A stretch of DNA of 64,000 nt from an uncultured Bacteroidota bacterium (GTDB taxonomy: Bacteria > Bacteroidota > Bacteroidia > Chitinophagales > Chitinophagaceae), in NCBI GenBank assembly GCA_903887005.1, contig CAISOH010000208.1:5252-69251 (forward strand). Direction: 5' to 3'. Below the pieces are notes generated by a model, which saw nothing but the letters and a program-made list of their open reading frames with translations, was not told the DNA's origin and ran no database searches. Positions 15,342-37,989 of this stretch are shown here, one piece after another (the first letter of the stretch is position 1; every line of letters begins with the position of its first letter). Made by a program: the position numbers and the translations under genes.

Positions 15342-15371
15342 AATGTTTAATTAAGTTATGCCTCAGAGACT

Positions 15372-19461: not shown

Positions 19462-19743
19462 TGGTTCGCGCACACTTGCCTGCCGGCAGGCAGGCTCTTT
19501 CAGCGTCTTACAAAGTAACGAAATAATGAGGAGGGAGAAAAAGGGAGTTATCCACAGCGGGGATTAAATTGTTGTAATAATTTCAAATTGACAAATTAGT
19601 ACGTTTTATTAATATATAATATCTCCACTGTAATACCAGGCCGAGCGGAAGGAGCCAGAACAGCTTAAAGAAGGATTTCCAATATTTGTGGATATCTTTT
19701 CATAGGATGGATTTTTTTCGGAATGGAGGTTATCATTAATCGC

Positions 19744-20322
19744 TTACTTCGTCAGAAAAATAGAATTCACTTCGTACTGTTTGTCGAAACCACCATAGGA
19801 ATATGTTTTCCCGTTTACGGCATACGATGCAAAATGCAGGTAGCAGGAGCCGTATATTTTGTTGCCTTTCTGATCGCAGGTTTCAACCGTCTGACTGGTT
19901 GTACCGGTTACTTTTATGCCAGATACCCGAAAAGTGCGCCCTGCCTTGGGGATAGATATCTCCCAGTCGTAGGGTGTAAAGTCTGCACTGGAGTCATAGA
20001 GATTGTATTTGTTGAGCTGTGTATCGAAGCAAAGGAGGGAATCCCATTCGGTACCGAAAAGCGGGTTCCAGGTGAAGTAAGGGCCGTTGGTTGTGGCACC
20101 CATCATGGAGTCGAGAATCACTGCACTGTCCAGCGGGTTGCTGAAAGAGTTGTCGGCTTTATAGACCTTTACTATTACCGTCCGGAGGGTGGCGCTGTCG
20201 AAGCCCACCATCACGAAATTATAGCCGGTGCTACAGGCCACCGTCTCGGGACAAGTGTATTTTTTACAGCCAAATGCCAGCAGCATTACTGCGGTACTGA
20301 GGAAAAACATCACCTTTTTCAT
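19744..20322 (-). CDS. hypothetical lipoprotein
   Basis: MKKVMFFLSTAVMLLAFGC lipobox. Preferred over the fully overlapping plus-strand ORF 19723-20331, which has no signal peptide and an atypical composition. Confidence 0.5.
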   Translation of the reverse strand: MKKVMFFLSTAVMLLAFGCKKYTCPETVACSTGYNFVMVGFDSATLRTVIVKVYKADNSFSNPLDSAVILDSMMGATTNGPYFTWNPLFGTEWDSLLCFDTQLNKYNLYDSSADFTPYDWEISIPKAGRTFRVSGIKVTGTTSQTVETCDQKGNKIYGSCYLHFASYAVNGKTYSYGGFDKQYEVNSIFLTK

Positions 20323-20411
20323 GTGTATTAACAAGCAAATACTATGCCAGAAATTGAGCGCACTGTACCATTGTCTTTACAACGTTTCGACAAGTTGTGA
20401 GCTAATTTTTT

Positions 20412-20990
20412 CTAATCATCTAATCCCTTCCCATCCAGAATGTGCGGTATATATTTTTCAACCCTTGACTCCCGGGTTTTGGACTGTTTGGGCTGAGAAA
20501 AATGAAACAGGTAGGCTCTTTGCCGCCCCGGTGTCAACGCCTTAAAAGCAGTTTTCAATGCAGCATTTTTGTCCAGTTTACTTTGAAATTCTTCCGGAAT
20601 TTTATACTCTTCCGTCTTTTTTAATTCCACCTTCAAACCTACTTCTTCCACTTCAACTGCTTCATAAATATAGGCTTTCACGGTGGCTTCCATCTTTGCT
20701 ATTTCCCCGGCACTGGTGAACCGGATCTGGCGGGCTGACTGCACATTTTCCGTTTGTTGGATCAGAATGCCTTTGGCATCCTTTAGCAAGGCACCCTTGA
20801 AAAACAGCAACGCGCAGTATTCTTTAAAAACATGTATCAATACTATGTTGCTTTTCTGAAAAGTGTAACAAGGACAACCCCACTTCAATTCTTCCGTAAG
20901 ATGACAGTCAAGAACGATCGTTCTCAATAGCTCAATTTCTTCCTGCCACTTTTTGGCTTTACTAAAATAAAAATCAACCTTAGGATTCAT
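20412..20990 (-). CDS. YdeI/OmpD-associated family protein with DUF1801-like N-domain
   Basis: The N-terminus FYFSKAKKWQEEIELLRTIVLDCHLTEELKWGCPCYT and the C-terminus FKALTPGRQRAYLFHFSQPKQSKTRESRV resemble the YdeI/YdhG-like family as I remember it. Confidence 0.55.
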   Translation of the reverse strand: MNPKVDFYFSKAKKWQEEIELLRTIVLDCHLTEELKWGCPCYTFQKSNIVLIHVFKEYCALLFFKGALLKDAKGILIQQTENVQSARQIRFTSAGEIAKMEATVKAYIYEAVEVEEVGLKVELKKTEEYKIPEEFQSKLDKNAALKTAFKALTPGRQRAYLFHFSQPKQSKTRESRVEKYIPHILDGKGLDD

Positions 20991-22995: not shown

Positions 22996-23052
22996 TTGCC
23001 ATGTTTCTTAACCAGCTTCAACTTTGTACCACCATTAAAAGTAGTAACAACA

Positions 23053-23535
23053 ATGACACTAGAAAAAGAAATACACCAGGTAAGGCCTTTCCGGAATGAT
23101 TATCACAGAGCATTTGTAAACATTATTTATTCCGGCAAATGGATGTTACAGTTTAGTAATGATTTGCTGAAACCATATAATTTAACCCCTCAGCAATATA
23201 ACATCCTTCGCATTTTAAGGGGCCAGTATCCCGAGGCAAGCACCATCATATATATCCGCGAAAGGATGCTTGACCGCATGAGCGATGCATCAAGAATTGT
23301 TGAGGTCCTCCGGAAAAAAGGATTGGTTGAAAGAAATGTTTGCGAAGGCAACAGGCGCAGGATGGATGTTTTAATAACTGAGAAAGGGCTCTATCTGCTG
23401 TCGGAAATAGAAAAGGAAGAAAATGAACGGATGGATAAACACCTCTCCGCCTTGGATGAACAGGAGATTAACCAGCTAAATCTCCTTCTTGATCAACTAA
23501 GGAACCATACGGATTACGCTTTAAAATCAGCTTAA
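23053..23535 (+). CDS. MarR-family transcriptional regulator, paralogue 1
   Basis: Winged-helix core LTPQQYNILRILRG...IRERMLDRMSDASRIVEVLRKKGLVER...RRRMDVLITEKG. The ATG at 23053 is chosen by alignment with the paralogues (MTLEKEI...). Confidence 0.85.
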   Translation: MTLEKEIHQVRPFRNDYHRAFVNIIYSGKWMLQFSNDLLKPYNLTPQQYNILRILRGQYPEASTIIYIRERMLDRMSDASRIVEVLRKKGLVERNVCEGNRRRMDVLITEKGLYLLSEIEKEENERMDKHLSALDEQEINQLNLLLDQLRNHTDYALKSA

Positions 23536-23734: not shown

Positions 23735-24190
23735 ATGCTACCCGAAATAGAAATACAACAAACCAGGAACTTCAGGAATAATTATCATAAAGCATTTGTA
23801 AACATCATCTCTACCGGAAAATCGATGTTGCAATTTAATTCCGATTTCCTGAAGCCATACAACATAACTCCTCAGCAATTTAATATCCTTCGCATTTTAC
23901 GGGGTAAATATCCCGAAGCGCTGACAATAATATATATACGTGAAAGAATGCTTGATCGCATGAGCGATGCATCAAGAATTGTTGAACTTCTCAGGAAAAA
24001 AGGACTAATTGAAAGAAATATTTGTGAAGGCAACAGGCGAAGGATGGATGTTTTGTTAACTCAAAAAGGGCTCAATCTGCTGGATGAAATAGAAAAAGAA
24101 AATGAACGGATAGATAATCGTCTCTCCTCTTTAAAGGAGCAGGAGATCCTCCAACTCAATTTCCTTCTTGATAAACTAAGAAATCCTTAA
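23735..24190 (+). CDS. MarR-family transcriptional regulator, paralogue 2
   Basis: 151 aa, collinear with paralogues 1, 3 and 4. Identical core IIYIRERMLDRMSDASRIVELLRKKGLIERNICEGNRRRMDVL. Confidence 0.85.
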   Translation: MLPEIEIQQTRNFRNNYHKAFVNIISTGKSMLQFNSDFLKPYNITPQQFNILRILRGKYPEALTIIYIRERMLDRMSDASRIVELLRKKGLIERNICEGNRRRMDVLLTQKGLNLLDEIEKENERIDNRLSSLKEQEILQLNFLLDKLRNP

Positions 24191-24251: not shown

Positions 24252-24308
24252 GTGCCTAGTACTACAGCATATTGCACATTTGTATCGTCAATAATAGTGA
24301 TAACAACA

Positions 24309-24764
24309 ATGACATTAGAAAAAGACATACAACAGATTAAGCCATTCAGAAATGATTACCATAAAGCATTTGTAAACATTATTTTTACCGGCAAATGGGT
24401 GTTACAGTTTAATTATGATTTGCTGAAGCCATATAATTTAACTCCCCAGCAATACAACATACTTCGCATTTTACGGGGTAAATATCCCCAGGCAAGTACA
24501 ATAATTTATATCCGCGAAAGGATGCTTGACCGCATGAGCGATGCATCAAGGATCGTTGAGCTCCTCCGGAAAAAAGGATTGATTGAAAGGAATATTTGTG
24601 AAGACAACAGGCGCCGGATGGATGTTTTAATAACCCAAAAAGGGCTTGACCTGCTGGAGGAAATAGAACAGGAAAATGATCGTGTTGACAGCCGCCTCTC
24701 TGCATTAAATAATAAAGAAATTATTCAACTCAATTCCCTTCTGGATAAGCTAAGAGATGCATGA
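24309..24764 (+). CDS. MarR-family transcriptional regulator, paralogue 3
   Basis: 151 aa starting MTLEKDIQQIKPFRNDYHKAF. By-eye identity to paralogue 1 is roughly 75-80 percent. Confidence 0.85.
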   Translation: MTLEKDIQQIKPFRNDYHKAFVNIIFTGKWVLQFNYDLLKPYNLTPQQYNILRILRGKYPQASTIIYIRERMLDRMSDASRIVELLRKKGLIERNICEDNRRRMDVLITQKGLDLLEEIEQENDRVDSRLSALNNKEIIQLNSLLDKLRDA

Positions 24765-24937: not shown

Positions 24938-25714
24938 TTGTTTACAATTAACAGTAAAAATTTGAAAACCATCAATTGTAAATCCTGCTTATGTGCAGAT
25001 TGTTTTGTAAAGTTGTGTTCTCCGGAATGGGTTCAGCAAATTGATCTTCTGAAATACCAGACTCTTTATAAGAAAAATCAAAACATCATCAATGAAGGTT
25101 TCCGGATTTTTGGTATTTTCTTTATTTTAAAAGGAAAAGTGAAAGTTTTTTCTACCGGATTAAACGGAAGGGAGCAAATCGTACGTTTTGCCAGTGACGG
25201 ACATATCCTTGGACACAGAAGTATTGGAAATGAAGTATATCCGGTTAGCGCCACAGCTATGGAAGACTCTCTCATCTGCTTTATCGAAAATGATACGCTG
25301 AATGAAATGTTTGTTGCCAATCCCGAATTTGTAATAGCACTGATGATGTATTATTCCCGTGAACTGCGCAAGTTAGAAAACAGGGTTAAGAACATTGTGC
25401 AGATGAACATAAGGGAGAAAACTGCAGAGACATTATTATTGATGCTTGAAAACTTCGGTATAAACAGAAGTAATGAATTGAACCTGTCTTTCTCCCGCGA
25501 AGACTTTGCCAGCTTTGCAGGCAGCACCCGGCAGCAGGTAGCCATGCAACTTACCGAATTTGAAAAAGACGGTTTTATTGAAAAACGCGGAAAAAAAATA
25601 GCCATGAATAATATTGAAGGATTACAAAAAATCATTGGTGCATTCAACCTGCAAATACCCTCCAATACATATCATCAGCAGCCTGAAAAGCAGCTTAACC
25701 TTAAGAACAACTAA
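24938..25714 (+). CDS. Crp/Fnr-family transcriptional regulator with N-terminal cysteine cluster (FNR-like)
   Basis: cNMP-binding-like beta-roll (FFILKGKVKVF...GREQIVRF) and a C-terminal HTH (SREDFASFAGSTRQQVAMQLTEFEKDGFI). The N-terminus has CKSCLCADCFVKLC (5 Cys), and a further Cys lies in LICFIEN. TTG start, no in-frame ATG nearby. Confidence 0.85.
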   Translation: MFTINSKNLKTINCKSCLCADCFVKLCSPEWVQQIDLLKYQTLYKKNQNIINEGFRIFGIFFILKGKVKVFSTGLNGREQIVRFASDGHILGHRSIGNEVYPVSATAMEDSLICFIENDTLNEMFVANPEFVIALMMYYSRELRKLENRVKNIVQMNIREKTAETLLLMLENFGINRSNELNLSFSREDFASFAGSTRQQVAMQLTEFEKDGFIEKRGKKIAMNNIEGLQKIIGAFNLQIPSNTYHQQPEKQLNLKNN

Positions 25715-26309: not shown

Positions 26310-27299
26310 ATGGCAGACCAAAATAACAAAAACGAAGACGGCTCCACCCTACCCGCTAGTAATTCAGGCAGGCGTAATTTCCTCAAGTTCGGTGCTTTGG
26401 CAGCAGGGCTTACTGTGGTGGGTGGCGGACTAACGAAAGTATTTTCCGGTGAAAAAGGTCAGAAAGTAAAATTGCTCTCCCCTGACGGCAAAGTGTACGA
26501 GGCGAATTCCGATCATCTGAAAGAGTTTCGTCCACCACCGGTTAGCAACGAAGAAGCGCGCAAAGGAATTCCGAACAAAAAATTCGTTATGGTAATTGAC
26601 CTGGCCAAATGCGACGGATGCAAGAAATGCACTGAAGCATGCCAGGCAATGCACTATACGGAATCTGACCGGGAATGGATCAAAGTATTCAAAATGCAGG
26701 AAGCAAATGCAGAAGCTCCTTTTTATTTTCCCAAACCCTGTTTCCATTGCGATAACCCTACCTGCACCAAAGTTTGTCCGGTGAATGCTACCTTCAAAAG
26801 GGAGGATGGAATAGTGCTGATAGATAATGAACGCTGCATAGGTTGCCGCATGTGCATGGCTGCCTGCCCTTATTCTACCCGTTTTTTCAACTGGAGCCAT
26901 CCAAGTTCAGCCCAGACCGCTGCACTTGGCAATATAAAGTATTCACCTGAACAGAGTGTTCCCCGCAGAATGGGTACTGTAGAAAAATGTGATTTCTGTC
27001 CGGATATGCTCCGTCAAGGTAAGATGCCTGCCTGCGTTAGCGGATGCCCGATGAACGTCATTTATTTTGGCGACCAGAATGAAGATGCAGTCACCAATGC
27101 AGCAGGAGTAACAGTTAAGTTAAGCAAATTACTTGCAGACAATGCCGGGTATAGGCACCTGGAAGAATTGGGAACCGAGCCGCGTGTATATTATCTGCCA
27201 CCCAAAAACAGAAAATATCCTGTTCCCGAAATGGAAAATATCGGAACAGATAAGAAGGTAAAAAAACACAATACAGACATGGGCAATATGGGAATGTAA
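26310..27299 (+). CDS. Tat-exported 4Fe-4S ferredoxin-type subunit (NrfC/PsrB/ActB2-like)
   Basis: Twin-arginine signal SGRRNFLKFGALAAG. Four Cys clusters: CDGCKKCTEAC, CFHCDNPTCTKVCP, CIGCRMCMAACP and CDFCPD...CVSGCP. Confidence 0.88.
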   Translation: MADQNNKNEDGSTLPASNSGRRNFLKFGALAAGLTVVGGGLTKVFSGEKGQKVKLLSPDGKVYEANSDHLKEFRPPPVSNEEARKGIPNKKFVMVIDLAKCDGCKKCTEACQAMHYTESDREWIKVFKMQEANAEAPFYFPKPCFHCDNPTCTKVCPVNATFKREDGIVLIDNERCIGCRMCMAACPYSTRFFNWSHPSSAQTAALGNIKYSPEQSVPRRMGTVEKCDFCPDMLRQGKMPACVSGCPMNVIYFGDQNEDAVTNAAGVTVKLSKLLADNAGYRHLEELGTEPRVYYLPPKNRKYPVPEMENIGTDKKVKKHNTDMGNMGM

Positions 27300-27347
27300 C
27301 ACTGTTATTAAACAAATAATTAATAATTAACAAAAAACTTTTCAATT

Positions 27348-28808
27348 TTGGCAAACGAAAAATATAATCTGAAAAACGAGATAGAAACCCTCCGCGAAGA
27401 TTGCCTTCGCCCTACAAGGACTTTTGGGCGCTCTACTCAAATATGGGTAGGTTGTTTACTTGTTATCATTGGATGGGGGCTTTATTGCTACATTCATCAA
27501 CTCAGGGACGGGTTGGGGGTAACAGCCATGCGAAACTATGTTTCCTGGGGGTTATACATTTCCACCTTTGTATTCTTTATAGGCATCAGCCACTCCGGCA
27601 CGCTTGTATCAGCCATCCTCCGTATTACCAAACAGGAATGGAGACGGCCTATAACACGTTCAGCAGAGCTGCTCACATTCGTATCCCTGTGCTTCGGCGG
27701 AATTCAACCCATCATTGATTTGGGACGCCCGGACAGGATCATGAACCTTGTCTTTTTCGGAAGGATACAATCACCACTCATATGGGATATTATCTCCATC
27801 ATGACCTACTTTACAGGCAGTACGGTATTCCTTTTCCTCCCTATGATACCTGATATGGCGCTTTGCCGGGACAGGTTAACCGTTGTCGATACCCGGTATA
27901 AGAAATTTAAAAAATGGTTGTACAAATTCCTGGCTATCGGATGGCAAGGCACTAAATCACAATGGCACCGTTTGGAATTGACCATGACCATTATGACTAT
28001 CGTGATTATTCCGGTGGCAGTATCCGTGCACACAGTGGTAAGTTACATTTTCGCCATGACATTGCGCCCGGGTTGGGACAGTACCGTATTCGGCCCCTAC
28101 TTTGTGGTTGGCGCGCTTTACTCAGGTTCTGCCTGTGTAATATTAGGAATGGCAGCATTCCGGAAACTGTACCACCTGGAAAAATATATCACTCCCCGGC
28201 ATTTTGATTTGATTGGACGTGTAGTATTGGCGCTGACAATGATTTATGCTTACATGAATCTGAATGAATACTGGATACCTGCTTATAAAATGGCAACCGC
28301 TGAAGGACATTTGCTGAACGACCTGTTTACCGGCAGTTACTCCACAGCATTCTGGACATGCCAGTTCGGTACCGTATTGTTGCCTATTGTTATTATGGCG
28401 TTCCCTAAAGGGCGAAAAATAACACCGCTTGTTATTACCTGCATTATTATAGCGGCGGGTGCATGGGTAAAAAGATACCTCATAGTGGTGCCAACACTAT
28501 TACATCCCTTTATGCCCATACAGGAAGTTCCGGGTACATGGTCCACTTACTTTCCTAACTATGTAGAGTTCTCTGTTACTGCAGCATGCCTGGCTGGAAT
28601 ATTTCTAATCATTACCCTCTTTTCAAAACTCTTCCCCATGATGGCTGTTTGGGAAGTAGAAGAAGGAATAGAAATAGATCACGATAAGCAAATGGCAATA
28701 GAACTCAGGGAGATAAGGTTAGCAGAGGAAGCGAAATTACTTGACCTGGCCAAAACAAATGGAGGAGTTGTAAATGAAGGTAACAAATCAATCACACAAC
28801 CAGCATAA
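27348..28808 (+). CDS. NrfD/PsrC/ActC-like polytopic quinol-interacting membrane subunit
   Basis: 486 aa with about 10 or more TM segments. SWGLYISTFVFFIGISHSGTLVSAILR...WRRPITRSAE matches my memory of the NrfD/ActC family consensus. It lies directly downstream of the NrfC-like gene. TTG start. Confidence 0.8.
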   Translation: MANEKYNLKNEIETLREDCLRPTRTFGRSTQIWVGCLLVIIGWGLYCYIHQLRDGLGVTAMRNYVSWGLYISTFVFFIGISHSGTLVSAILRITKQEWRRPITRSAELLTFVSLCFGGIQPIIDLGRPDRIMNLVFFGRIQSPLIWDIISIMTYFTGSTVFLFLPMIPDMALCRDRLTVVDTRYKKFKKWLYKFLAIGWQGTKSQWHRLELTMTIMTIVIIPVAVSVHTVVSYIFAMTLRPGWDSTVFGPYFVVGALYSGSACVILGMAAFRKLYHLEKYITPRHFDLIGRVVLALTMIYAYMNLNEYWIPAYKMATAEGHLLNDLFTGSYSTAFWTCQFGTVLLPIVIMAFPKGRKITPLVITCIIIAAGAWVKRYLIVVPTLLHPFMPIQEVPGTWSTYFPNYVEFSVTAACLAGIFLIITLFSKLFPMMAVWEVEEGIEIDHDKQMAIELREIRLAEEAKLLDLAKTNGGVVNEGNKSITQPA

Positions 28809-28823
28809 TAAATCAAATATATT

Positions 28824-29705
28824 ATGAAGATGAACAACATAATCAAAAAAACAGCGCTTGCAATAACCTTAACCGGATTGTTTTCCATAACTGCATCCGC
28901 ACAGGACCAGGGTAAGAGTGAAGCCACTATTGTAATGTCGTACAGCAAAAATGCAGACCTGAGCAAAACTGCAACCGCAATCATAAAAGTGAAAAATAAA
29001 GATGGAAAGTTTGTGGCGGCAAAAAATGCAAAGGTTAATTTCTATCTGATGCACGACAAGCAGGAGCAACTGCTGAAAAGCGCCAATACAGATAATACCG
29101 GCCTGGCAGTTATTGTGCTTCAGAAGGATATGCCATTAGATGACAGCCTCTCTTTCACCATCGTGGCAAAGGTTGAAAATGATCCTTTGTATGAAAATGC
29201 TTCCGAACAGATGCATTACAAAGACGCCAACCTAAGCATAAAACTAAATCCTGCCGATACCGGACGGGTAGTTATCGCTAAAGTAACGCAAACAGGTAAA
29301 GACGGAAAAGAAATAGCTATAAAGGGTACTGAAGTGAAATTTTATGTAAAGCGCTTGTTTGGCAATATGCCTGCTGCCGAAGAATATGCCGTAAGCACGG
29401 AGGATAATGGGGAAGCTTCTTTTATTATTCCAAAAAACATACCCGGGGATTTAGAAGGTAAAGTCACAGTTGTTGCGAAAATTGAAGACAATGATAAATT
29501 CGGGAATGTAGAAGGCAATGCAGATACAAAATGGGGCAAGCCGCTTGCGACAATAAAAGATCCTTTTCCACGTGAGTTATGGAGTCCTTATGCTCCGTTG
29601 CCATTAGTAATTACTATTTCAACACTCTTTGGTGGTGTGTGGTTCACTTATTTTTTCCTCTTCTACCAGTTAGTAAAAATAAAAAAAGACACAGCAAAAG
29701 CTTAA
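28824..29705 (+). CDS. hypothetical periplasmic protein with two beta-sandwich-like repeats and a C-terminal TM anchor
   Basis: Signal peptide. Internal repeat (KVKNKDGKFVAAKNAKVNFYL / TQTGKDGKEIAIKGTEVKFYV). C-terminal hydrophobic helix LPLVITISTLFGGVWFTYFFLFYQLV. Confidence 0.55.
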   Translation: MKMNNIIKKTALAITLTGLFSITASAQDQGKSEATIVMSYSKNADLSKTATAIIKVKNKDGKFVAAKNAKVNFYLMHDKQEQLLKSANTDNTGLAVIVLQKDMPLDDSLSFTIVAKVENDPLYENASEQMHYKDANLSIKLNPADTGRVVIAKVTQTGKDGKEIAIKGTEVKFYVKRLFGNMPAAEEYAVSTEDNGEASFIIPKNIPGDLEGKVTVVAKIEDNDKFGNVEGNADTKWGKPLATIKDPFPRELWSPYAPLPLVITISTLFGGVWFTYFFLFYQLVKIKKDTAKA

Positions 29706-29736
29706 TTCCTAACAATAAACATAAATAACAAACAAT

Positions 29737-30174
29737 ATGAAAAAAAACATAGCACAAGTAAAGAAAATAAAATATCCGGGGTTCCTGGTAACCGGAGCTA
29801 TAGCAGGCGCAATAACTCTTCTGTATGCCTTCGCTCCCATGCCGGGGAAAAACACTCCATGGATTGCTCCGGCTACAGCAGACGCCGTAAAAAATCCTAT
29901 TGCATCGGACGCTGCGTCTATTGAAGCCGGTAAAGCCGTTTATAAAAAAAGCTGCTACGACTGCCATGGCAAAAAAGGGAAAGGCGATGGTCCGAAAAGC
30001 GGGGAATTAGACCAAAACCCACAGGACTTCACCAAACCGGAATTCCAAAAACAAACAGATGGCGCACTCTTCTGGAAAATCTCAGAAGGCAGAAAGCCAA
30101 TGCCTTCTTTTAAAAGTGAAATTACTAAGGAGCAGCGCTGGCAGGCCATCAATTATATACGTACACTGAAATAG
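29737..30174 (+). CDS. membrane-anchored monohaem cytochrome c (ActE/CBB3-type class I)
   Basis: CYDCHGKKGKGDG haem-binding motif, distal PMPSF Met, N-terminal TM anchor. Paralogous to ORF 35522-35929 (shared QTDGALFWKI...PMPS...NYIRTL). Confidence 0.85.
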   Translation: MKKNIAQVKKIKYPGFLVTGAIAGAITLLYAFAPMPGKNTPWIAPATADAVKNPIASDAASIEAGKAVYKKSCYDCHGKKGKGDGPKSGELDQNPQDFTKPEFQKQTDGALFWKISEGRKPMPSFKSEITKEQRWQAINYIRTLK

Positions 30175-30248: not shown

Positions 30249-31526
30249 ATGAAAAAGTTTACCAAACAAACAATTGCTGTCCTTGCCATATTAACAGTAA
30301 TATTTACTGCTGTTAAATGCACAAAACATAACCAGGTACTGGATTCTACTCCTGCAGCAGCCAATACTGATAGCTTAAGTTGTATTAAGGGAACTGCTAC
30401 CCTTCAGCCTATTGGTGGGTCTGCATGGGATGGTACTATTGAAGCCGTCTGGAACAATGTACCAAAACTGACAGTTCATGCCACAGTTCCTGATTTAGGA
30501 AATGGCACATTTGCCGGGTTTATTGGCAATTCTACAGACATTACTTTGCGTTCCATGTATGATGCAGCAAACATCTACTTTCTCGTGGAGTGGAATGCTG
30601 ACATGAAATGCCTGGCATCTTCACCATGGTACTATAACCCTACTACAATGCGTTGGGCCCAGGAAGCTTCTGCACCTGTTCAGAATTCGGGTGCTACCAC
30701 ATTCAGGCCTCCTTTTATCCAGGATCAATTTGTAATAATGTTTAACATTGCAAATTCCTGCCCTACTTTTAATTCTTTATCTTGCTATGCTGCATGCCAT
30801 GTAAATACAACTTTCGGTGATTCAACAATGACAGGAGGAGTAATGCACACAAACGGCCCTACTGAATTATTAGATGTATGGAGAGCCCGTATGCTCCAGG
30901 TTATGAATGTGAACCAGGCAAATGACTGCTATATAGATAATGGCGCCGGTGCTTTAAATGCGAATGAAGTTCATAATGATCTCCAGGTAAATAACGGACC
31001 TACTCCTGCAGCAGACGGCGGTTTCAGTAACAAACAAACCTTAAAAATTTCAGGGTTAGTAACTACAATTAAAGTATCGGTTCCCATGTTTGTAATACCA
31101 AGCGGAATATACAGCAATGGCGCTATCATGCAGAGCGATACACTCCCGGGCGGCAAAGCAGTAAAAGTAACCAAAGTTGATACTTTTGGAGTTCTTACGC
31201 TTGCCAATGGAGTAAAACTTGACCCCAGCACAGCAACATCAGGTACCGCATTTCAACAAGTGGGTACCGGCGACGGACCAAATTGTATTCCCGGCAGCAT
31301 AGTATCTAATTATACTGGAAGCCGTGGCGACGTAACCGCTAATGCTTATTGGACTGGAACAGGATGGAGATTATTATTGAAGCGCGCATTGAAAACAGCT
31401 GATGCTGTCAATGATGTTGATCTTTCCTCTTTGGCCACTCAGCCGTTCGGCGTAGGCGCAATGTTTAACGGAGCCGATAATGAACATGCCATTGTAGCAG
31501 GTCTGAAGTTGCACTTTAACAAATAA
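30249..31526 (+). CDS. secreted protein, possible DOMON / EB_dh / CBM9-fold (haem-b-binding-like) domain protein
   Basis: Signal peptide or lipobox (FTAVKC). The N-domain pattern TIEAVWNNVPKLTVHA...SMYDAANIYFLVEWNAD resembles ethylbenzene-dehydrogenase gamma / DOMON-type domains. This assignment is from memory only. Confidence 0.35.
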   Translation: MKKFTKQTIAVLAILTVIFTAVKCTKHNQVLDSTPAAANTDSLSCIKGTATLQPIGGSAWDGTIEAVWNNVPKLTVHATVPDLGNGTFAGFIGNSTDITLRSMYDAANIYFLVEWNADMKCLASSPWYYNPTTMRWAQEASAPVQNSGATTFRPPFIQDQFVIMFNIANSCPTFNSLSCYAACHVNTTFGDSTMTGGVMHTNGPTELLDVWRARMLQVMNVNQANDCYIDNGAGALNANEVHNDLQVNNGPTPAADGGFSNKQTLKISGLVTTIKVSVPMFVIPSGIYSNGAIMQSDTLPGGKAVKVTKVDTFGVLTLANGVKLDPSTATSGTAFQQVGTGDGPNCIPGSIVSNYTGSRGDVTANAYWTGTGWRLLLKRALKTADAVNDVDLSSLATQPFGVGAMFNGADNEHAIVAGLKLHFNK

Positions 31527-31548: not shown

Positions 31549-31950
31549 ATGATGAAAAAAATAGCAATAACAACGCTTGCACTTGGTGTACTGTCAGTTG
31601 CTCTAATCACAGGTTGTCAAAAAGACACCACGCTTTACATCAGGAATGAAGTGGCAGTTTCCGGGACCGTTTCTTTCAAAAAAGACCTGGTACCCATATT
31701 CACTGCTAACTGCGCTTTAAGCGGTTGCCATGCAAGTGGTGGTCATAAACCGGATTTATCGTCTGACAAAGCATATAATTCATTGAAAAGTGGAAAATTT
31801 GTTGACACAACGACAGCCGCCAGCAGCATCATATACGAGAGGTTAACAGGAAAACTTAGCCCTGCTATGCCTATGGGTAAAGCAACCAATCCATCCAATA
31901 TCAACTCGCTGATACTTGCATGGATAAAACAAGGGGCAAAGAACAATTAA
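31549..31950 (+). CDS. lipoprotein with Planctomycete-cytochrome-c-like (PSCyt1-like) segment carrying a CX4CH motif
   Basis: Lipobox LITGC. FTANCALSGCHASGGHKPDLSS...IIYERLTG...PAMPMG resembles PSCyt1-type domains, but with C-x4-CH instead of CxxCH. Confidence 0.45.
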   Translation: MMKKIAITTLALGVLSVALITGCQKDTTLYIRNEVAVSGTVSFKKDLVPIFTANCALSGCHASGGHKPDLSSDKAYNSLKSGKFVDTTTAASSIIYERLTGKLSPAMPMGKATNPSNINSLILAWIKQGAKNN

Positions 31951-31978: not shown

Positions 31979-32914
31979 ATGAAAATACTAAAAAAAATAA
32001 AACAGTCTCATGGTATTTGTCTGTTGATAATTGCCTGCTGCTGTTTACCTTCTGCCAGTGGCTATGCCCAGGACGGCAATAGTGCAGATAACACTGCACC
32101 TGTAGAAAAGACCTACACAAGAAATACCTTTGCAGGCAATATGATTATTGACAATCAATCGGTAATGGTGCCATTGGAAAAAACCATTGAGTTTGCCATT
32201 CAGCACCGCTTTGGCATAATCAATAACGGGTATGCCGATTTTTATGGAATGTTCGCTCCGGCAAACATTCGCCTGGGAATGAACTATACACCAATTAAAA
32301 ACCTGCAATTAGGTATTGGCTTAACAAAAGGTAATATGCTTGTGGACGGTAACCTCAAATATGCCATTATCAAACAAGCGGAAAGCGGTGGTTCCCCGGT
32401 AAGCGTTACCTATTATGGAGATATGGCAATATCAACCATTCCCCAGGCAGGTAATTTCGTAAACAATGCCGACAGAATCTCTTATTTTAACCAGTTGATT
32501 ATAGCGAGGAAAGTTACCAAAGAATTCTCTGTGCAGGTATCGCCAAGTTTATCTTACTTTAATAATATAGTGGGATACGTGGCTCCCGATGGAAGCATTC
32601 AGCCGACAATGAAAAACGCAAATTTTTCCATTGCCTTCAGCGGCAGGTATAAGGTGACCGGGGCTATGAGCATAATGGTAAATTATGATCAGCCTCTTAC
32701 GCAAAATCTGACCAATAACCCGCTTCCAAATATCAGTCTTGGATTGGAGTTCAGTACAACCGGACATACTTTCCAGATATTTGCAACAGACTATCAAGGA
32801 ATCATTCCTCAATATAACAACGTCTTTAACCAGATTGACTGTTCAAAGGGACAATTCCTGATTGGGTTTAACATAACCAGGAGATGGTATCATGACTCAG
32901 ACAAAGAGAAATAA
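31979..32914 (+). CDS. putative outer-membrane beta-barrel protein
   Basis: Signal peptide. Alternating hydrophobic/polar strands with aromatic girdle residues throughout (e.g. FSIAFSGRYKV, SLGLEFST, FLIGFNITRRW). Confidence 0.45.
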   Translation: MKILKKIKQSHGICLLIIACCCLPSASGYAQDGNSADNTAPVEKTYTRNTFAGNMIIDNQSVMVPLEKTIEFAIQHRFGIINNGYADFYGMFAPANIRLGMNYTPIKNLQLGIGLTKGNMLVDGNLKYAIIKQAESGGSPVSVTYYGDMAISTIPQAGNFVNNADRISYFNQLIIARKVTKEFSVQVSPSLSYFNNIVGYVAPDGSIQPTMKNANFSIAFSGRYKVTGAMSIMVNYDQPLTQNLTNNPLPNISLGLEFSTTGHTFQIFATDYQGIIPQYNNVFNQIDCSKGQFLIGFNITRRWYHDSDKEK

Positions 32915-32939
32915 ATTTTTAGGTAAGTGAGTAATGATT

Positions 32940-32969
32940 GCGCGCGCAGAGAAGTTCTGCGCGCGCTTT
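32940..32969 (+). terminator. GC-rich rho-independent terminator ending the seven-gene operon
   Basis: gcgcgcgcaga-gaagt-tctgcgcgcgc (11-bp GC-rich stem) followed by ttt, 26 bp after the stop at 32914. It stands out in an AT-rich context. Confidence 0.65.
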
Positions 32970-33011
32970 AGGAATCCAATGTTTCGCTGCGGAATGTCAA
33001 TGGTTAGTACT

Positions 33012-33467
33012 ATGTCACTTGAGAAAGAAATACACCAGGTCCGGCCATTCAGGAATGAATACCATAAAGCAACTGTCAACATTATTTATACTGGCAAATG
33101 GATGTTGCAGCTTATCTTAGATGTGCTGAGGCCATATAAATTAACGCTCCAGCAATACAATATCCTTCGCATCTTACGGGGTAAATTTCCTGAAGCAATT
33201 ACAGTAACTTACTTTCGCGACAGATTGCTTGACAGGATGAGCGATGCCTCAAGAATAATTGAAGTCCTCAGAAAAAAAGGATTGGTAAAAAGAAATATCT
33301 GCGAAGAAAACAGGCGCAGGATGGATGTTTTAATAACTCAAAAAGGAATCCAGCTGCTTGATGAAATAGAAAAAGAAAATGAGCGGATGGATAAGTACTC
33401 TTCCTCATTAAATGACCAGGAAATAATTCAACTCAATTTCCTGCTCGATAAGCTAAGAAATCTTTAA
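33012..33467 (+). CDS. MarR-family transcriptional regulator, paralogue 4
   Basis: MSLEKEIHQVRPFRNEYHKA... is collinear with paralogues 1-3. The ATG at 33012 lies downstream of the terminator hairpin, so the 5' extension in the ORF track is rejected. Confidence 0.85.
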   Translation: MSLEKEIHQVRPFRNEYHKATVNIIYTGKWMLQLILDVLRPYKLTLQQYNILRILRGKFPEAITVTYFRDRLLDRMSDASRIIEVLRKKGLVKRNICEENRRRMDVLITQKGIQLLDEIEKENERMDKYSSSLNDQEIIQLNFLLDKLRNL

Positions 33468-33556: not shown

Positions 33557-33608
33557 GATTGTTGCAAAAATAAAACTGATTAAAATCAGTTTTATTTTTG
33601 CAACAATC
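33557..33608. promoter_or_regulatory. perfect 52-bp palindrome (25-bp arms, 2-nt centre) with a CTGAT-TAAA-ATCAG core
   Basis: gattgttgcaaaaataaaactgatt-aa-aatcagttttatttttgcaacaatc. All 25 arm positions were verified as complementary. It lies between marR copy 4 and the porin operon. Confidence 0.8.
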
Positions 33609-33889: not shown

Positions 33890-35092
33890 ATGAAACCAAA
33901 TAAATTAATTACAAAAGTTTTATTGTTTGCTGTATTCGCTTTTTTAAAGGCGAATACTTCAATTGCACAGGGAACCGACAATACAGATGTATCCAAACAA
34001 GTATCCGCACTGAAACCAGGAGAGAGTAATTTCATGATGGTAGGCCTGGTAACGTTTGGTTTTGTAAATCAAAACATCACCACCACCGGACTATCTCCCA
34101 ACAAAACAAATAGCATAGGAGACGCAGACCGTTATGAATTCAGCCCGATGTTCCTTTGGCGCCATGGCGATAAACTGCTTGCCGAATTTGAACCATCATG
34201 GGATGGCAATGCAATAGGCGTAAACTGGGCTGATGTGTCCTATTATGTTGCTCCCGGTTTTATAGTAAGAGGGGGGTATTTGGTTTTGCCTTTCGGAACC
34301 TATTCAAAGCGTTTGGCCGCCGGATGGATCAATAAATTACCTTCTGATCCTTATGGTATGGATATGCCCGGAAGTGATTTTGGAGTAGAAGTGGAAGGTG
34401 GATTCCCATTAGGAAGTATGAAATGGAGCTATGATATTGCGGTTTCAAACGGGTTTCAGTTGAACCCGAACGGACAAATTGCAGGCGTTGGGATTAATGC
34501 GATAAATAATGGCAAAACAGTAACAGGCAGGTTAGCTTTATTACCGCTTTCCAATTCAAGCCTGGAAATTGGTGTTTCAGGCTTAATGGGTAGCCTTGCT
34601 ACACCTACAGGCGATTCCAATATTTATAATAACCCAATGGCCTCTATGTACGCAGTTGACTTCAATTTTATAAAAAATATTAATCCGGTACAGATTAATA
34701 TTAAAGGGCAATATAATATTTCAAATATAAATAAACAGACTTATTCAAGTCCTGATTCTTCACTTCCAAAATATTCCTTTGAAAATAATGCAAGTTCCTA
34801 CTTTGCACAACTGTCATTAAGGCCTTCAAAATCAAAAAATAAGATCCTTAGAAATTTTGAGTTGGCCGGACGTTATGTAAACTATACCACTCCCAAGCAG
34901 TCTTTATGGGGACAAAATTATTCCGAAATGGACATATGCCTGGATTACTGGCTAAGCTGGAGAACCGTAATTAAGTTAGGGTATGAAAGTACTAAGTCAG
35001 ACGGGACTACATCCCAGTCCGTTTCAACAGGATTAGATGGCACTTCTACAACTGTAAACAGAATGATTATCCAATTTTCCACCGAATTTTAA
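33890..35092 (+). CDS. outer-membrane porin-like beta-barrel protein
   Basis: Signal peptide, beta-strand periodicity, and a C-terminal ...IQFSTEF ending in Phe as in OMP sorting signals. 400 aa, similar in size to phosphate-selective porin O/P-like proteins. Confidence 0.6.
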   Translation: MKPNKLITKVLLFAVFAFLKANTSIAQGTDNTDVSKQVSALKPGESNFMMVGLVTFGFVNQNITTTGLSPNKTNSIGDADRYEFSPMFLWRHGDKLLAEFEPSWDGNAIGVNWADVSYYVAPGFIVRGGYLVLPFGTYSKRLAAGWINKLPSDPYGMDMPGSDFGVEVEGGFPLGSMKWSYDIAVSNGFQLNPNGQIAGVGINAINNGKTVTGRLALLPLSNSSLEIGVSGLMGSLATPTGDSNIYNNPMASMYAVDFNFIKNINPVQINIKGQYNISNINKQTYSSPDSSLPKYSFENNASSYFAQLSLRPSKSKNKILRNFELAGRYVNYTTPKQSLWGQNYSEMDICLDYWLSWRTVIKLGYESTKSDGTTSQSVSTGLDGTSTTVNRMIIQFSTEF

Positions 35093-35104
35093 AAAACAAC
35101 TTTT

Positions 35105-35389
35105 ATGAAAATAACGAGTATTCAAAAAATAGCAACAATAATAATAATTTGCTCTGGAATTTTTGGCCTGATTACTGTAAATGGCTGCGTGGAAAGCAAA
35201 CAGGTAGCTGCAAAAAGCGGTGCGCAACTGTGGGGAGAAAATTGCTCAAGATGCCATAATATGCCTGCTCCTGCTACTTTTTCACAGGAACAATGGAAAA
35301 CCGTAGGTATGCATATGCAAAGCCGTGCGCTGCTTACTAATAAGGAAAAGGATAAAATTGTAGAATTTCTGCAGCAATCAAGTAATTAA
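35105..35389 (+). CDS. small monohaem cytochrome c (lipoprotein-like)
   Basis: CSRCH haem motif. Hydrophobic N-terminus ending in VNGC. 94 aa. Confidence 0.65.
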   Translation: MKITSIQKIATIIIICSGIFGLITVNGCVESKQVAAKSGAQLWGENCSRCHNMPAPATFSQEQWKTVGMHMQSRALLTNKEKDKIVEFLQQSSN

Positions 35390-35423
35390 TATACAATATC
35401 CCGATTCTAATTTCAATATAGTG

Positions 35424-35497
35424 GCTGTCTCAAAAGTAAATGAAATAATACAGTTAGTTTTAATTAAAGCTATTATAATTTCAACTTTTGAGACAGC
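35424..35497 (+). other. long-range inverted repeat within the operon (14-bp perfect arms, 46-nt spacer)
   Basis: gctgtctcaaaagt (35424-35437) pairs with acttttgagacagc (35484-35497), between two cytochrome c genes. Confidence 0.6.
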
Positions 35498-35521
35498 ATG
35501 CTAAATTTAAAATAATTAAAA

Positions 35522-35929
35522 ATGAAAAAAATAACAAATGGCGCCTCACTGCTGATTTTAGCCAATGTAATATGCTTTTCAACTTTTGCTCAGCAAAAAG
35601 TATTTACCGCTCCGGCTTCAGCTGATGGTATGCAAAATCCATTTAAAGACAATGCAGCAGCAACTGCAAATGGCAAAACAACCTATACCACCTTTTGTGT
35701 GCCATGCCATGGCGATAAAGGTAAAGGCGATGGCGTTGCAGCCGCTGGATTACAAAAACAACCTGCTGATCATACTTCAGCTAAAATTCAGGCGCAAACT
35801 GATGGCGCTTTGTTTTGGAAGATATTTACCGGCAACAATCCTATGCCCAGTTATAAGATGCTATCTCAAACCCAGATATGGGAATTAGTGAATTATATAC
35901 GCACCTTATCTAAAGCTAAGAAAAAGTAG
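35522..35929 (+). CDS. periplasmic monohaem cytochrome c (class I, CBB3/ActE-type)
   Basis: Signal peptide. CVPCHGDKGKGDG. Distal PMPSY Met. Paralogue of 29737-30174. Confidence 0.85.
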   Translation: MKKITNGASLLILANVICFSTFAQQKVFTAPASADGMQNPFKDNAAATANGKTTYTTFCVPCHGDKGKGDGVAAAGLQKQPADHTSAKIQAQTDGALFWKIFTGNNPMPSYKMLSQTQIWELVNYIRTLSKAKKK

Positions 35930-36051
35930 CAAAATTAATTAAAATAGCACCTATTTGATTTGGCGAAAACAGGTGTACTATTTCCATATTGCGTCTTTCT
36001 GGTTTAGGTTTATAATAACGGTATATTAGAGTATTATTAAATACTGCGTCT

Positions 36052-37326
36052 ATGAAATATGGCAAACAATTCTGGATTACAGTTGCCCTGTTTAATCTAT
36101 GTATTGTAGCAGCTTTGGGCGTTTTGTTGAGAACCAAAATGGTCTTCCCCCTGGAATCAATTGAATTCAGCAATATTCTGGAAGCGCATTATCATTTCGC
36201 AATGAATGGATGGATAACATCCACCTTAATGGTTTTGATGGTATATGAACTACTGCCGGAGTTAATTAATAGAAAACCTGTTTATCAATGGATGCGTTGG
36301 GGGATGTTGCTCAGTAGTTATGGTTTGGCATTGAGCTTCATTATTGATGGTTATACAACAGTTACAATGATAATTATTACTTTTTACATTGTCCTGGTAT
36401 TTTTATTTTCATGGATATTCATCAAGGACTTAATTAAAGCAAAGCCGGTTAAGCCGGTATTAATACTCTGTACTTGCGCACTGGTATCTTTGGTGTTGTC
36501 TTGTATAGGCCCGGAAACTTTTCTGGGTTTTGTGCTTGCCGCCCATTCCATGAATATACTTTTATTCCGCGATACTGCTTATACTTATTTGCACTTTCAA
36601 TACAACGGTTTTTTTCCGCTGGCTATTTTTGCGTTATTTTTCAATTACATTGGCAGTAAGGATATTTCATTGAAAGCACAGAAGTATATGCATAAAATAG
36701 CCATCATGCTGCCTGTAATTATTCTACCCACTCTTTTTTTATCCTATCTCTGGCATTACCCCAATGTGTACGTACGTTCAATTGCAGCTTTGGGATGCAT
36801 TTGCATGTTTGTGTTTATGTTCCTCTTCTACAGATTACTAAGTTCTGTATGGGCGCATTTAAAACTAATGGACCGGTATTCAAAGTTTTTAGGCGTCTTA
36901 TCTATTATTTCGTTGACTGTAAAAGTCATTTTACAAACCGGGACTTTGATACCATATGTTGGTATTATTGTTTTCGGTAACAGGCCAATTATCATAGGAT
37001 ATATTCATTTGGTAATGCTTGGCTTTATTACCTTATTTCTTCTGTCTTATTTTTTGCAAAATGCCTTTCTAAATAGCAATACGACAGTTACCAAAACCGC
37101 CATTCTTATTTTTGCATCAGGAGTAGTGATTAATGAATTATTATTGATGCTGCAGGGCCTCAGCCAGATTCTTATGAAGTTTTATCCAATTTACGGATGG
37201 CTGCTTTGGGGAGCAGTGATATGGTTGTTAACAGGAGCGGTCGCAATCCTGGCTTCAAGGCTAAAATACAGGAAGCTTGTTTCCGTCAATATCCTTGAAA
37301 ACAGGCACAAAATTATGACCCGTTGA
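36052..37326 (+). CDS. 12-TM integral membrane protein with three His-containing intramembrane motifs (possibly NnrS-like, unassigned)
   Basis: 424 aa and almost entirely hydrophobic. Recurring motifs HYHFAMNGW, YLHFQYNGFF and YIHLVMLGF lie in separate helices. No HCO-type HH motif. Confidence 0.6.
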   Translation: MKYGKQFWITVALFNLCIVAALGVLLRTKMVFPLESIEFSNILEAHYHFAMNGWITSTLMVLMVYELLPELINRKPVYQWMRWGMLLSSYGLALSFIIDGYTTVTMIIITFYIVLVFLFSWIFIKDLIKAKPVKPVLILCTCALVSLVLSCIGPETFLGFVLAAHSMNILLFRDTAYTYLHFQYNGFFPLAIFALFFNYIGSKDISLKAQKYMHKIAIMLPVIILPTLFLSYLWHYPNVYVRSIAALGCICMFVFMFLFYRLLSSVWAHLKLMDRYSKFLGVLSIISLTVKVILQTGTLIPYVGIIVFGNRPIIIGYIHLVMLGFITLFLLSYFLQNAFLNSNTTVTKTAILIFASGVVINELLLMLQGLSQILMKFYPIYGWLLWGAVIWLLTGAVAILASRLKYRKLVSVNILENRHKIMTR

Positions 37327-37461
37327 TTTTTAAAATATTATTATTGAAATTGAAAAAATTGTATAAATTTATGATGCATGTAAAACCATCCAAATCTTAA
37401 TTCGAAGTTTCGTTTGATCACAAGTTCAATTATTTTATAAAAAAGTTAAACAAAAAATGTT

Positions 37462-37935
37462 ATGAAAAAAACTTATTTATTTGCATTAATGATTTCAGCA
37501 AGCCTGGTCATTTTTAGCTGTGGTAACTCCCAACAAAATAATGAAGATAGCAAAAATGCAGCGGCTACTTCTGCTCCCAAACCTGCCGAAGGCGGAGACC
37601 AGGGTGTGGGAAGTTATAAGAATGTGGAATTGACGCACCCGGTTGATCAAAGTATGGCAGAAAAAGGAAAAGAAATTTATGGCGTGAAATGCATTGCCTG
37701 CCATAAAATTACAGCCGAGAAGATGATAGGCCCCGGATGGAAGGGCGTTACAGAGAGAAGGAGGCCCGAGTATATACTGAATTTTGTAACCAATACAGAC
37801 GAAATGCTTGACAAAGATCCTAATGCCAAAGCCTTACTTTCTGTATGCATGGTAAGAATGCCTAACCAGCACCTTACGGATATTGAAGCCCGTTCGGTAC
37901 TTGAATTCATGCGTAAAAACGATGGAAAAAATTAA
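37462..37935 (+). CDS. cytochrome c lipoprotein (c551/c552-like)
   Basis: Lipobox LVIFSC. CIACHKITAEKMIGPGWKGV and distal VRMPNQ. It resembles the small cytochromes encoded in Bacteroidota denitrification loci. Confidence 0.8.
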   Translation: MKKTYLFALMISASLVIFSCGNSQQNNEDSKNAAATSAPKPAEGGDQGVGSYKNVELTHPVDQSMAEKGKEIYGVKCIACHKITAEKMIGPGWKGVTERRRPEYILNFVTNTDEMLDKDPNAKALLSVCMVRMPNQHLTDIEARSVLEFMRKNDGKN

Positions 37936-37955
37936 AAAGATAAATTTTTAAAAAA

Positions 37956-37989
37956 GGCATTTCTGTTAAATCAGGAATGCCTTTTTTTT
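37956..37989 (+). terminator. rho-independent terminator ending the second cytochrome operon
   Basis: ggcatttctg-ttaaat-caggaatgcc followed by tttttttt. Confidence 0.8.

Follow-up and report, generated by a model that had tools for sequence, protein, structure and literature searches.

The window analysed here, a 64,000-nucleotide stretch of contig CAISOH010000208.1 from an uncultured Bacteroidota bacterium, carries four adjacent plus-strand genes at the core of a real and conserved set of respiratory genes, which is related to alternative complex III (ACIII) but pared down and equipped with a new immunoglobulin (Ig)-like subunit. In order, the genes encode a periplasmic ferredoxin exported by the twin-arginine translocation (Tat) pathway with four Cys motifs of the [4Fe-4S] type (26310–27299; 329 amino acids; Pfam Fer4_11), an integral membrane subunit of the NrfD family with 10 helices (27348–28808; 486 amino acids; Pfam NrfD), a two-domain Ig-like protein with a C-terminal anchor (28824–29705; 293 amino acids; AlphaFold2), and a membrane-anchored monohaem class I cytochrome c with a CYDCH haem motif and a distal Met within a PMP motif (29737–30174; 145 amino acids; Pfam). 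Open reading frames (ORFs), Pfam matches, the AlphaFold2 model and the membrane anchors agree with the positions, lengths and types that an earlier sequence-only reading had given these genes. A scan with the Ig-like protein, one genome per species, located 48 related loci. With modest confidence, we favour the view that the four genes encode a quinol:cytochrome c oxidoreductase that acts at the inner membrane, in a chain leading electrons outward to the outer membrane and expressed at low oxygen.

The membrane subunit provides the link to ACIII. It matches Pfam NrfD at 6.6e-30 and contains no iron-sulfur (FeS) domain and no Cys/FeS motifs. Among PDB sequences, the four solved ActC chains are its best matches (206–223 bits; 1e-59 to 8.7e-65, the last for 6btm_C; residues 31–441), ActF scores 28 bits (1e-5), and the same search returned no match to PsrC. 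The relationship is nonetheless distant: the protein is 32–36% identical to ActC, whereas the ActC proteins of Bacteroidota, Rhodothermota and Chloroflexota share 54–68% among themselves, and it scores 280 bits with a hidden Markov model (HMM) built from four ActC proteins, compared to 740–760 bits for true ActC. Of the NCBIfam models, DsrP fits it best (115 bits, with a cut-off of 350); ActC scores 58 bits on this model. In a neighbour-joining tree, the NrfD homologues associated with an Ig-like gene form a single group, composed of a main Bacteroidota clade, a paralogous clade and a clade from the Planctomycetota-Verrucomicrobiota-Chlamydiota (PVC) bacteria. This group lies outside any characterised clade in the tree and has ActC as its sister, E. 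coli HybB and NrfD branching outside both, in agreement with the published grouping of the 10-helix NrfD members. We treat the sister placement as provisional because DsrP, QrcD and HmcC are absent from the tree.

The charged triad of the ActC quinol site consists of His139, Asp169 and Asp253 in R. marinus numbering (PMC5928083). All four ActC proteins carry H, D, Y and E at the positions of His139, Asp253, Tyr323 and Glu394, where the window protein has D124, I234, N304 and K375. These four substitutions are a signature of the clade: across 50 aligned members, His139 is replaced by Asp, Asp253 by Ile or Leu, Tyr323 by Asn or Thr, and Glu394 by Lys, apart from one Ser and one Met at the last two of these sites. 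Asp169 alone is kept from the triad (D147 in the window protein), while the ActC pocket and channel residues are mostly retained (W82, I86, F89, H97, R114, R119, E122, D169, Y176, H247, E326, E338 and R395). Hence the ACIII likeness proposed by the sequence-only reading stands insofar as ActC is the closest relative among solved structures, but it does not extend to His139 and Asp253 of the quinol site. Because of its distinct identity, its tree position and its replaced pocket residues, we regard the clade as a distinct subfamily with a predicted remodelled quinone pocket and not as an ACIII orthologue; the window protein presumably houses a menaquinol/menaquinone site.

One of the related loci, L017, illustrates this separation. 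Here, a canonical ACIII lies about 2 kb from the module and is divergently transcribed, with an ActA containing six CXXCH motifs, an ActC with His139 in place and a 1092-amino-acid ActB that scores 829 bits against 6btm_B. Because a true ACIII coexists with it, the module is a paralogous system, neither a degenerate ACIII nor its replacement. The parts of ACIII described as missing from the module, ActA, ActB1 and ActF, are indeed absent. No ORF contains more than one CXXCH motif among the 49 of 54 listed ORFs that were checked (window ORFs of at least 130 amino acids and a 94-amino-acid cytochrome; of the five listed ORFs outside this check, three are overlapping or antisense), Pfam scans of the operon genes detected no molybdopterin domain, and the cluster has a single NrfD-family ORF, no second one having been found.

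The third subunit sets the module apart from ACIII. The AlphaFold2 model of the 293-amino-acid protein (predicted local distance difference test score, pLDDT, of 83) shows a cleavable signal peptide followed by two Ig-like β-sandwiches and a C-terminal helix (residues 259–292), and the anchor carries a conserved motif, DPFPRALWxPYAP. Sequence searches of the PDB gave no match at E≤1, and a structure search returned generic Ig folds only. The family comprises 901 representative clusters, and none of the listings that carry names has a functional one; no invariant Cys or His pair suggestive of a cofactor was found in it. Six Verrucomicrobiota loci encode an in-frame fusion in which the NrfD protein continues at its C-terminus into the second Ig domain and the anchor. 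The L048 fusion was the one examined: there the topology stays consistent because an extra, 11th helix takes the place of the signal peptide. The in-frame fusion is strong evidence that the Ig-like and NrfD proteins form one complex, of which the Ig-like protein is a new subunit. A reading of this protein as ActD, which has two transmembrane helices with both termini cytoplasmic and a conserved Glu122, is ruled out by topology (a signal peptide, periplasmic Ig domains and one helix), by fold and by sequence.

The two remaining subunits are of more general types. The FeS protein combines a twin-arginine signal (SGRRNFL) with four Cys motifs, and Pfam shows Fer4-type domains only (Fer4_11 at 7e-23). 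Its top NCBIfam model is DsrO (185 bits; cut-off 200), and its best PDB match is PsrB (2vpw_B, 2e-29), with ActB at 1e-14 to 2e-22; PsrB, ArrB and DsrO all outrank ActB2. These matches point to a generic ferredoxin of the NrfC/PsrB/DsrO type, not specifically ActB2. The protein is full length, and its family has kept the Tat motif and the 16 Cys (13 of them in 45 of 45 members, the other three in 41–44); hence it is not a truncated molybdoenzyme pseudogene, a possibility that had been raised as a refutation of the module. The cytochrome matches Pfam Cytochrome_CBB3 and Cytochrom_C, is anchored by hydrophobic residues 14–35, and contains the signature string that had been read as ActE-like. In the PDB, its matches are a Kuenenia cytochrome (6h5l_B, 4.6e-20, 75 bits) and c552 (2e-15, 60 bits), compared to 24–35 bits (1e-7 to 4e-6) for ActE chains, suggesting a generic cytochrome, not specifically ActE. 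A member of its family occurs in 43 of the 48 loci, and we presume it to be the exit or entry point of the module. Thus, of the proposed mirror of ActB2-ActC-ActD-ActE, the membrane subunit holds up as nearest ActC, whereas the Ig-like protein is not ActD and the FeS protein and, it seems, the cytochrome are generic.

The genes downstream of the module would connect it to the outer membrane. The four core genes are joined by gaps of 12–74 bp to three plus-strand genes that we call cassette A. The first (30249–31526) encodes a 425-amino-acid lipoprotein of EB_dh/DOMON-type fold (Pfam EB_dh, 1.8e-12; AlphaFold2, pLDDT 83.5), for which Foldseek returned the haem-binding γ subunits NxrC (7b04) and EbdC (2ivf_C), as well as CBM9. 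Folds of this type are known to bind haem b non-covalently. Here, a CX3CH motif (C179, C183, H184) is invariant in 40 of 40 and 24 of 24 sequences, and M199 and H413 are invariant as well. The second gene (31549–31950) encodes a 133-amino-acid lipoprotein with a lipobox, a CX4CH motif (CALSGCH, C55–H61) invariant in 25 of 25 sequences, and a P.MP motif. It shows faint similarity to a cytochrome or hydrazine-synthase haem domain and is probably a monohaem cytochrome. The third gene (31979–32914) encodes a predicted outer-membrane β-barrel of the family DUF5777 (Pfam description ‘membrane bound beta barrel’, 1e-73), which always follows the 133-amino-acid gene, in 24 loci. A MarR-like gene (32934–33467) begins 19 bp past the DUF5777 gene and is the last gene of this first operon, which ends in a terminator-like hairpin with a 20-bp stem (33559–33606, plus strand).

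A second plus-strand operon (33890–37935) follows and is itself succeeded by a terminator-like hairpin at 37950–37987. It opens with cassette B, which we define as a porin-like protein of 400–455 amino acids with a cytochrome lipoprotein of about 94 amino acids. In the window, the 400-amino-acid protein (33890–35092) has a signal peptide, no transmembrane helix and a predicted outer-membrane location, and 17 of 21 family members end in Phe (...GF). No Pfam, NCBIfam or PDB match was found for it, but its family occurs in 20 loci and is always accompanied by the 94-amino-acid cytochrome. The latter (35105–35389; CSRCH) keeps its lipobox Cys and NC.RCH motif in 19 of 19 sequences and matches Cytochrome_CBB3 weakly. 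Next comes a soluble periplasmic paralogue of the anchored cytochrome (35522–35929; 50% identity), probably a shuttle. The motifs of the cytochromes are of the His/Met type, and their best NCBIfam match, a weak one, is cytochrome 579. Profile-profile comparison detected no homology between the 400-amino-acid porin family and DUF5777, nor between either of them and the fused cytochrome-porins of other loci, and PDB sequence searches with the EB_dh protein and the fused cytochrome-porin returned nothing useful.

This arrangement recurs well beyond the window. Nearly all of the 48 loci come from metagenome-assembled genomes of Bacteroidota from peat (palsa, fen and bog), permafrost and stratified boreal lakes; the remainder belong to Kapaibacterium, Verrucomicrobiota and Planctomycetota, together with one isolate, Hydrotalea flava CCUG 51397. 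Gene context is drawn mostly from metagenome-assembled genomes, and proteins identical to those of the window are present in lake metagenome assemblies. The core of FeS, NrfD and Ig-like genes is constant: the FeS/NrfD gene pair is kept in 42–48 loci, and synteny extends across three phyla, in line with the tie to the downstream genes that the sequence-only reading had suggested. At the 38 loci with at least 4.5 kb of downstream sequence, we found cassette A in 17, cassette B in 13, both in three (as in the window) and another barrel with a cytochrome in five. Every one of the 38 modules therefore has an outer-membrane barrel with a c-type cytochrome as its neighbours, and the architectures of these pairs fall into four unrelated kinds. 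In L043 and L044, a fused monohaem cytochrome-porin follows straight after the cytochrome gene, and L042, a short locus outside the 38, has the start of one. In L046, L051 and L052, lipoprotein cytochromes with 7–8 haems adjoin a large ORF in a Pcc-like manner; in L046 the large ORF encodes tandem-duplicated barrels of 677–686 amino acids, and in L051 it measures up to 857 amino acids from stop to stop. All-against-all clustering of the ORFs of the related loci identified no conserved catalytic enzyme, oxidase gene or further partner.

Two loci would extend the system to the cell surface. In L024 (9845–11365) and L038 (10707–12365), the operon includes a cargo protein of the type IX secretion system (T9SS), with SprB repeats, a Por_Secre_tail domain and an N-terminal CTFCH haem motif, which would be a cell-surface c-type cytochrome in Bacteroidota. 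This protein also shows a faint Reeler-like domain and was inserted together with three unknown lipoprotein-like genes. The isolate locus (L040), where the module is accompanied by cassette B, is embedded differently: directly before the module comes an AraC regulator (6905–7564) whose N-terminal domain is HMA-like and contains a CxxC, and Met/His-rich HMBD proteins and a Cus/Czc-type efflux system (13913–20824) lie after it. In L048 (Spartobacteria), the module and cassette B are next to a minus-strand region (13796–19446) with a haem-copper oxidase, including COX1 and a COX2-cytochrome c fusion, a cytochrome b, and a multihaem cytochrome with an MtrC/MtrF-like domain. A cytochrome b is also found near the module in L044. 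Separately, four loci hold a second, more divergent copy of the FeS, NrfD and Ig-like genes in tandem upstream of the main one (L015, 1499–4716; L016, 2–2701; L023, 2340–5511; L033, 1–5264). The NrfD proteins of these copies are 43–44% identical to that of the window, as measured in two of the four, with His97 changed to Leu, and in L023 a DUF5777 barrel gene and cytochrome genes belonging to this copy come before it.

Upstream of the module, the window contains a regulator of the FNR/CRP family (24938–25714, plus strand) with an N-terminal Cys cluster (C14, C17, C19, C22 and C27). It matches Pfam cNMP_binding and HTH_Crp_2, and its top NCBIfam model is the Fnr subfamily (79 bits, below the cut-off). 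Such a gene adjoins the cluster in 18 loci, nearly always with an N-terminal CxxC...C arrangement, suggesting a regulator that senses oxygen or redox state. Three MarR-like genes precede it on the same strand (22996–23535, 23735–24190 and 24252–24764); together with the one that ends the first operon, they are four paralogues of 70–77% identity. In the related loci, the MarR homologues match Pfam MarR_2 weakly, and a MarR gene accompanies the cluster in about nine. Four such paralogues within about 10 kb around the cluster, one of them closing a respiratory operon, is an unusual local expansion. Scans for sigma-70 promoters gave background levels.

Gene context is the evidence that decides the interpretation: because the module stands beside barrel and cytochrome genes at all 38 loci with enough flanking sequence, its probable role is to transfer electrons between the quinone pool of the membrane and the cell surface. 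In the mechanism that we propose, menaquinol would be bound and oxidised at the remodelled pocket on the periplasmic side of the ActC-like NrfD subunit, and the four-cluster ferredoxin seated on this subunit would take the electrons away. The single-pass Ig-like protein would serve as a structural subunit bound to the NrfD protein. From the FeS clusters, electrons would pass to the anchored monohaem cytochrome c as the output, and from there via soluble monohaem cytochromes, such as that encoded at 35522–35929, or lipid-anchored ones to the outer-membrane partners. The window would offer two of these: the EB_dh lipoprotein with the CX4CH lipoprotein and the DUF5777 barrel, and the porin-like barrel with the 94-amino-acid cytochrome lipoprotein. 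The chain may reach beyond the outer membrane, in which case it would amount to extracellular electron transfer (EET). Because no catalytic subunit is conserved, the acceptor or donor is probably an outer-sphere redox partner; a likely acceptor would be of fairly high potential and in no need of a catalytic site, such as complexed Fe(III), Mn or a humic-bound metal. Outward flow is our preference, since menaquinol reduces a c-type cytochrome downhill and the hosts seem to be heterotrophs. Use at low oxygen, most likely under the FNR-like regulator, is suggested by the Cys clusters of these regulators and by habitats that are anoxic, humic and iron-rich.

Several observations pull against this interpretation. 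All partners in the window are monohaem, leaving only one or two haems per conduit to bridge the outer membrane. Class I cytochromes with His/Met ligation are usually of high potential, which is unusual for reducers of Fe(III) oxides and equally fits Cyc2-like uptake. The metal-regulator and efflux context in Hydrotalea hints at metal handling. Matches to the FNR box (TTGAT-N4-ATCAA, at most one mismatch) number seven against 4.8 expected, and the 595 bp preceding the FeS gene contain none. For the CX3CH and CX4CH proteins, haem binding is proposed from their invariant motifs, and the outer-membrane site of the 400-amino-acid protein from its signal peptide, its lack of a helix and its C-terminal Phe; a period-2 amphipathicity test for β-barrels gave no discrimination. 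Finally, the tree behind the ActC relationship has few outgroups, PsrC having been left out along with the sequences named above.

The high-potential character suggested for the cytochromes and the Cyc2-like variant leave room for a reversed direction of flow, which we judge unlikely. In such a scheme, the barrel/cytochrome pairs would oxidise an external donor, most plausibly Fe(II), in a Cyc2-like manner, periplasmic cytochromes would hand the electrons mainly to a high-affinity oxidase, and the module would act as a Qrc-like cytochrome c:menaquinone reductase that is electrogenic or driven by the proton-motive force. Three loci have the fused monohaem cytochrome-porin that is the defining architecture of Cyc2, and the His/Met-type motifs and the weak match to cytochrome 579 point the same way. 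ACIII has been proposed in the pathways of Fe(II) oxidisers alongside Cyc2, the pocket differs from that of the quinol oxidase ActC, with an Asp at position 139 that is common to the quinone reductase HybB, and control by FNR would suit micro-oxic Fe(II) oxidation too. Yet menaquinone reduction by a c-type cytochrome is strongly uphill, and the hosts, apparently heterotrophic Bacteroidota and PVC bacteria, would have no need of reverse electron flow. The module moreover retains the periplasmic half-channel residues (E326, E338 and R395) of ActC, a proton-pumping quinol oxidase, and the Pcc-type multihaem partners at three loci are best known from metal reducers.

If electrons do leave the quinone pool, they could stop short of the outer membrane. 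The module would then be a low-oxygen substitute for ACIII or bc1 that feeds a cbb3 or caa3 oxidase or periplasmic reductases by way of the monohaem cytochromes, with the barrels and lipoproteins serving substrate import or assembly and not electron transfer across the outer membrane. The closeness to ActC and the adjacent FNR-like regulator speak for this, as do the haem-copper oxidase and cytochrome b near the L048 module, the cytochrome b near that of L044, and the anchored cytochrome itself, which we take to resemble oxidase-donating domains (c552, CcoP-like). We nevertheless consider it rather improbable: a barrel and a cytochrome are present at all 38 loci, in four unrelated architectures and three phyla, whereas no oxidase gene is conserved with the module. 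Furthermore, the small partners are themselves haem lipoproteins, one variant of the operon has the secreted T9SS cytochrome, and a canonical ACIII can coexist with the module. We consider it very improbable that the system serves metal homeostasis in the periplasm and outer membrane, for instance by adjusting the redox state of copper or iron under stress without conserving energy, even though the Hydrotalea flava cluster is flanked by the HMA-like AraC regulator on one side and by HMBD proteins and Cus/Czc efflux on the other and several MarR-family regulators surround the cluster of the window, because the efflux context is confined to Hydrotalea-type loci (L003, L004 and L040), 18 loci have FNR-type regulators instead, and an ActC-like subunit bearing a proton channel exceeds the needs of detoxification.

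Returning to outward flow to the outer membrane, we can tentatively sketch a wider proposal, possible but short of probable. The module may represent a new EET family in Bacteroidota and PVC bacteria of peat and humic lakes, with an ACIII-derived engine of three or four subunits, drawn from the FeS protein, the ActC-like protein, the Ig-like anchor and the monohaem cytochrome, and an interchangeable outer-membrane part. The window would then hold a minimal monohaem porin-cytochrome conduit, with the CX4CH lipoprotein inside the DUF5777 barrel and possibly a surface-exposed DOMON-fold protein with covalent haem, next to a split Cyc2-like cytochrome-porin.

Other features of the window touch the system less directly. 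The second operon contains a 424-amino-acid polytopic membrane protein (36052–37326, plus strand), flanked by cytochrome c genes, with about 12 predicted helices and the motif EAHYHFAMNGW. Searches of Pfam, NCBIfam and the PDB returned no match for it, none of the related loci has it, and its membership in the system is doubtful. The operon closes with a gene (37462–37935, plus strand) for a 157-amino-acid monohaem cytochrome c lipoprotein that is not conserved with the system. At 41495–43678, 3.5 kb downstream of the cluster, lies a gene for a 727-amino-acid T9SS-secreted protein (Por_Secre_tail, Big_2) without a haem motif. The first 6000 nucleotides of the window have a G+C content of 31–37%, compared to about 41–45% elsewhere, and a 2730-amino-acid ORF with a signal peptide (5214–13406) follows this low-G+C start.

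In peatlands, permafrost and stratified lakes, the turnover of carbon and the release of methane are shaped by the respiration of iron and humic substances. The abundant Bacteroidota and Verrucomicrobiota of these habitats are usually scored as lacking EET genes because searches target multihaem cytochromes. If our proposal is correct, the Ig-like subunit and the D/I/N/K signature of the NrfD protein would provide a marker for such metabolism. It would also mean that ACIII-type machinery works without its pentahaem and molybdopterin-like parts, offering a small natural system in which to study how NrfD proteins couple quinol chemistry to proton movement. The CX4CH lipoprotein and the EB_dh/DOMON-fold protein, with its putatively covalent haem, would be unusual cytochromes as well. 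The question can be tested because one carrier, Hydrotalea flava CCUG 51397, is in culture.

Comparison with known systems places the module between several of them. It shares with ACIII a full-length, 10-helix ActC homologue, and a ferredoxin and a monohaem cytochrome in the roles of ActB2 and ActE. It differs in having no pentahaem ActA, molybdopterin-like B1 domain, ActD or ActF and, instead, a single-pass Ig-like subunit. A ‘novel NrfD complex’ described in PMC10732223 has the gene order of canonical ACIII.

The dimeric modules NrfCD, PsrBC, DsrOP and QrcCD likewise pair a Tat ferredoxin with a cofactor-less NrfD protein, and DsrO and DsrP are the top NCBIfam models for the respective subunits. 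The module also falls in the 10-helix group, which does not pair with standard molybdoenzymes. It departs from these dimers in having its own third subunit, and in having barrel/cytochrome pairs as partners in place of a periplasmic reductase. Membership in DsrOP itself can be rejected: both scores fall below their cut-offs (185 against 200 for DsrO, 115 against 350 for DsrP), and no DsrM, DsrK or DsrJ genes are present in the window.

The module had also been likened to NosGH. NosGH and NapGH use a Tat ferredoxin and a membrane subunit to supply a periplasmic pathway with electrons taken from menaquinol, and their operons also encode small cytochromes c. NosH, however, is a NapH-type FeS membrane protein with four helices and cytoplasmic [4Fe-4S] motifs and does not belong to the NrfD family. 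The likeness to NapGH and to the NosGH of clade II nos clusters therefore holds by functional analogy only, as the membrane subunit is of the NrfD type and no nos genes were found among the window ORFs scanned.

The Cbc complexes of Geobacter are inner-membrane quinol oxidases of EET pathways. Like the EET systems built on CymA, Pcc, Mtr or Cyc2, the proposed chain would combine a quinone-reactive inner-membrane complex with periplasmic cytochromes c and a barrel with its cytochrome. It differs in that the cytochromes of the window are all monohaem, in the CX3CH and CX4CH motifs, in the two unrelated barrel types, and in its hosts, Bacteroidota and PVC bacteria, which are not classical metal reducers or oxidisers. 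The multihaem partners of Pcc and Mtr conduits thus have no counterpart in the window, but do in L046, L051 and L052. Cyc2 is a single polypeptide of at least 365 amino acids, with a signal peptide, one N-terminal CXXCH and a porin of about 16 strands (PMC8406198). The window, by contrast, encodes its porin (400 amino acids, no haem motif) and cytochrome (94 amino acids) in separate genes; the two are fused at the same operon position in L043 and L044, at full length, and partially in L042, a likeness to Cyc2 that is one of architecture, as no Cyc2 sequence or HMM entered the comparison.

Literature searches found no description of this gene set, and a review of NrfD-containing complexes lists no such system. 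What is already known are the NrfD/FeS/cytochrome c oxidoreductases (ACIII, Qrc, NrfCD and the clusters described as menaquinol:cytochrome c oxidoreductases of metal reducers) and the porin-cytochrome conduits. What is new is the clade with its four-residue signature, the Ig-like subunit, an ACIII-type machine cut down to FeS, ActC-like and monohaem cytochrome parts, and a set of all-monohaem outer-membrane partners with CX3CH and CX4CH motifs.

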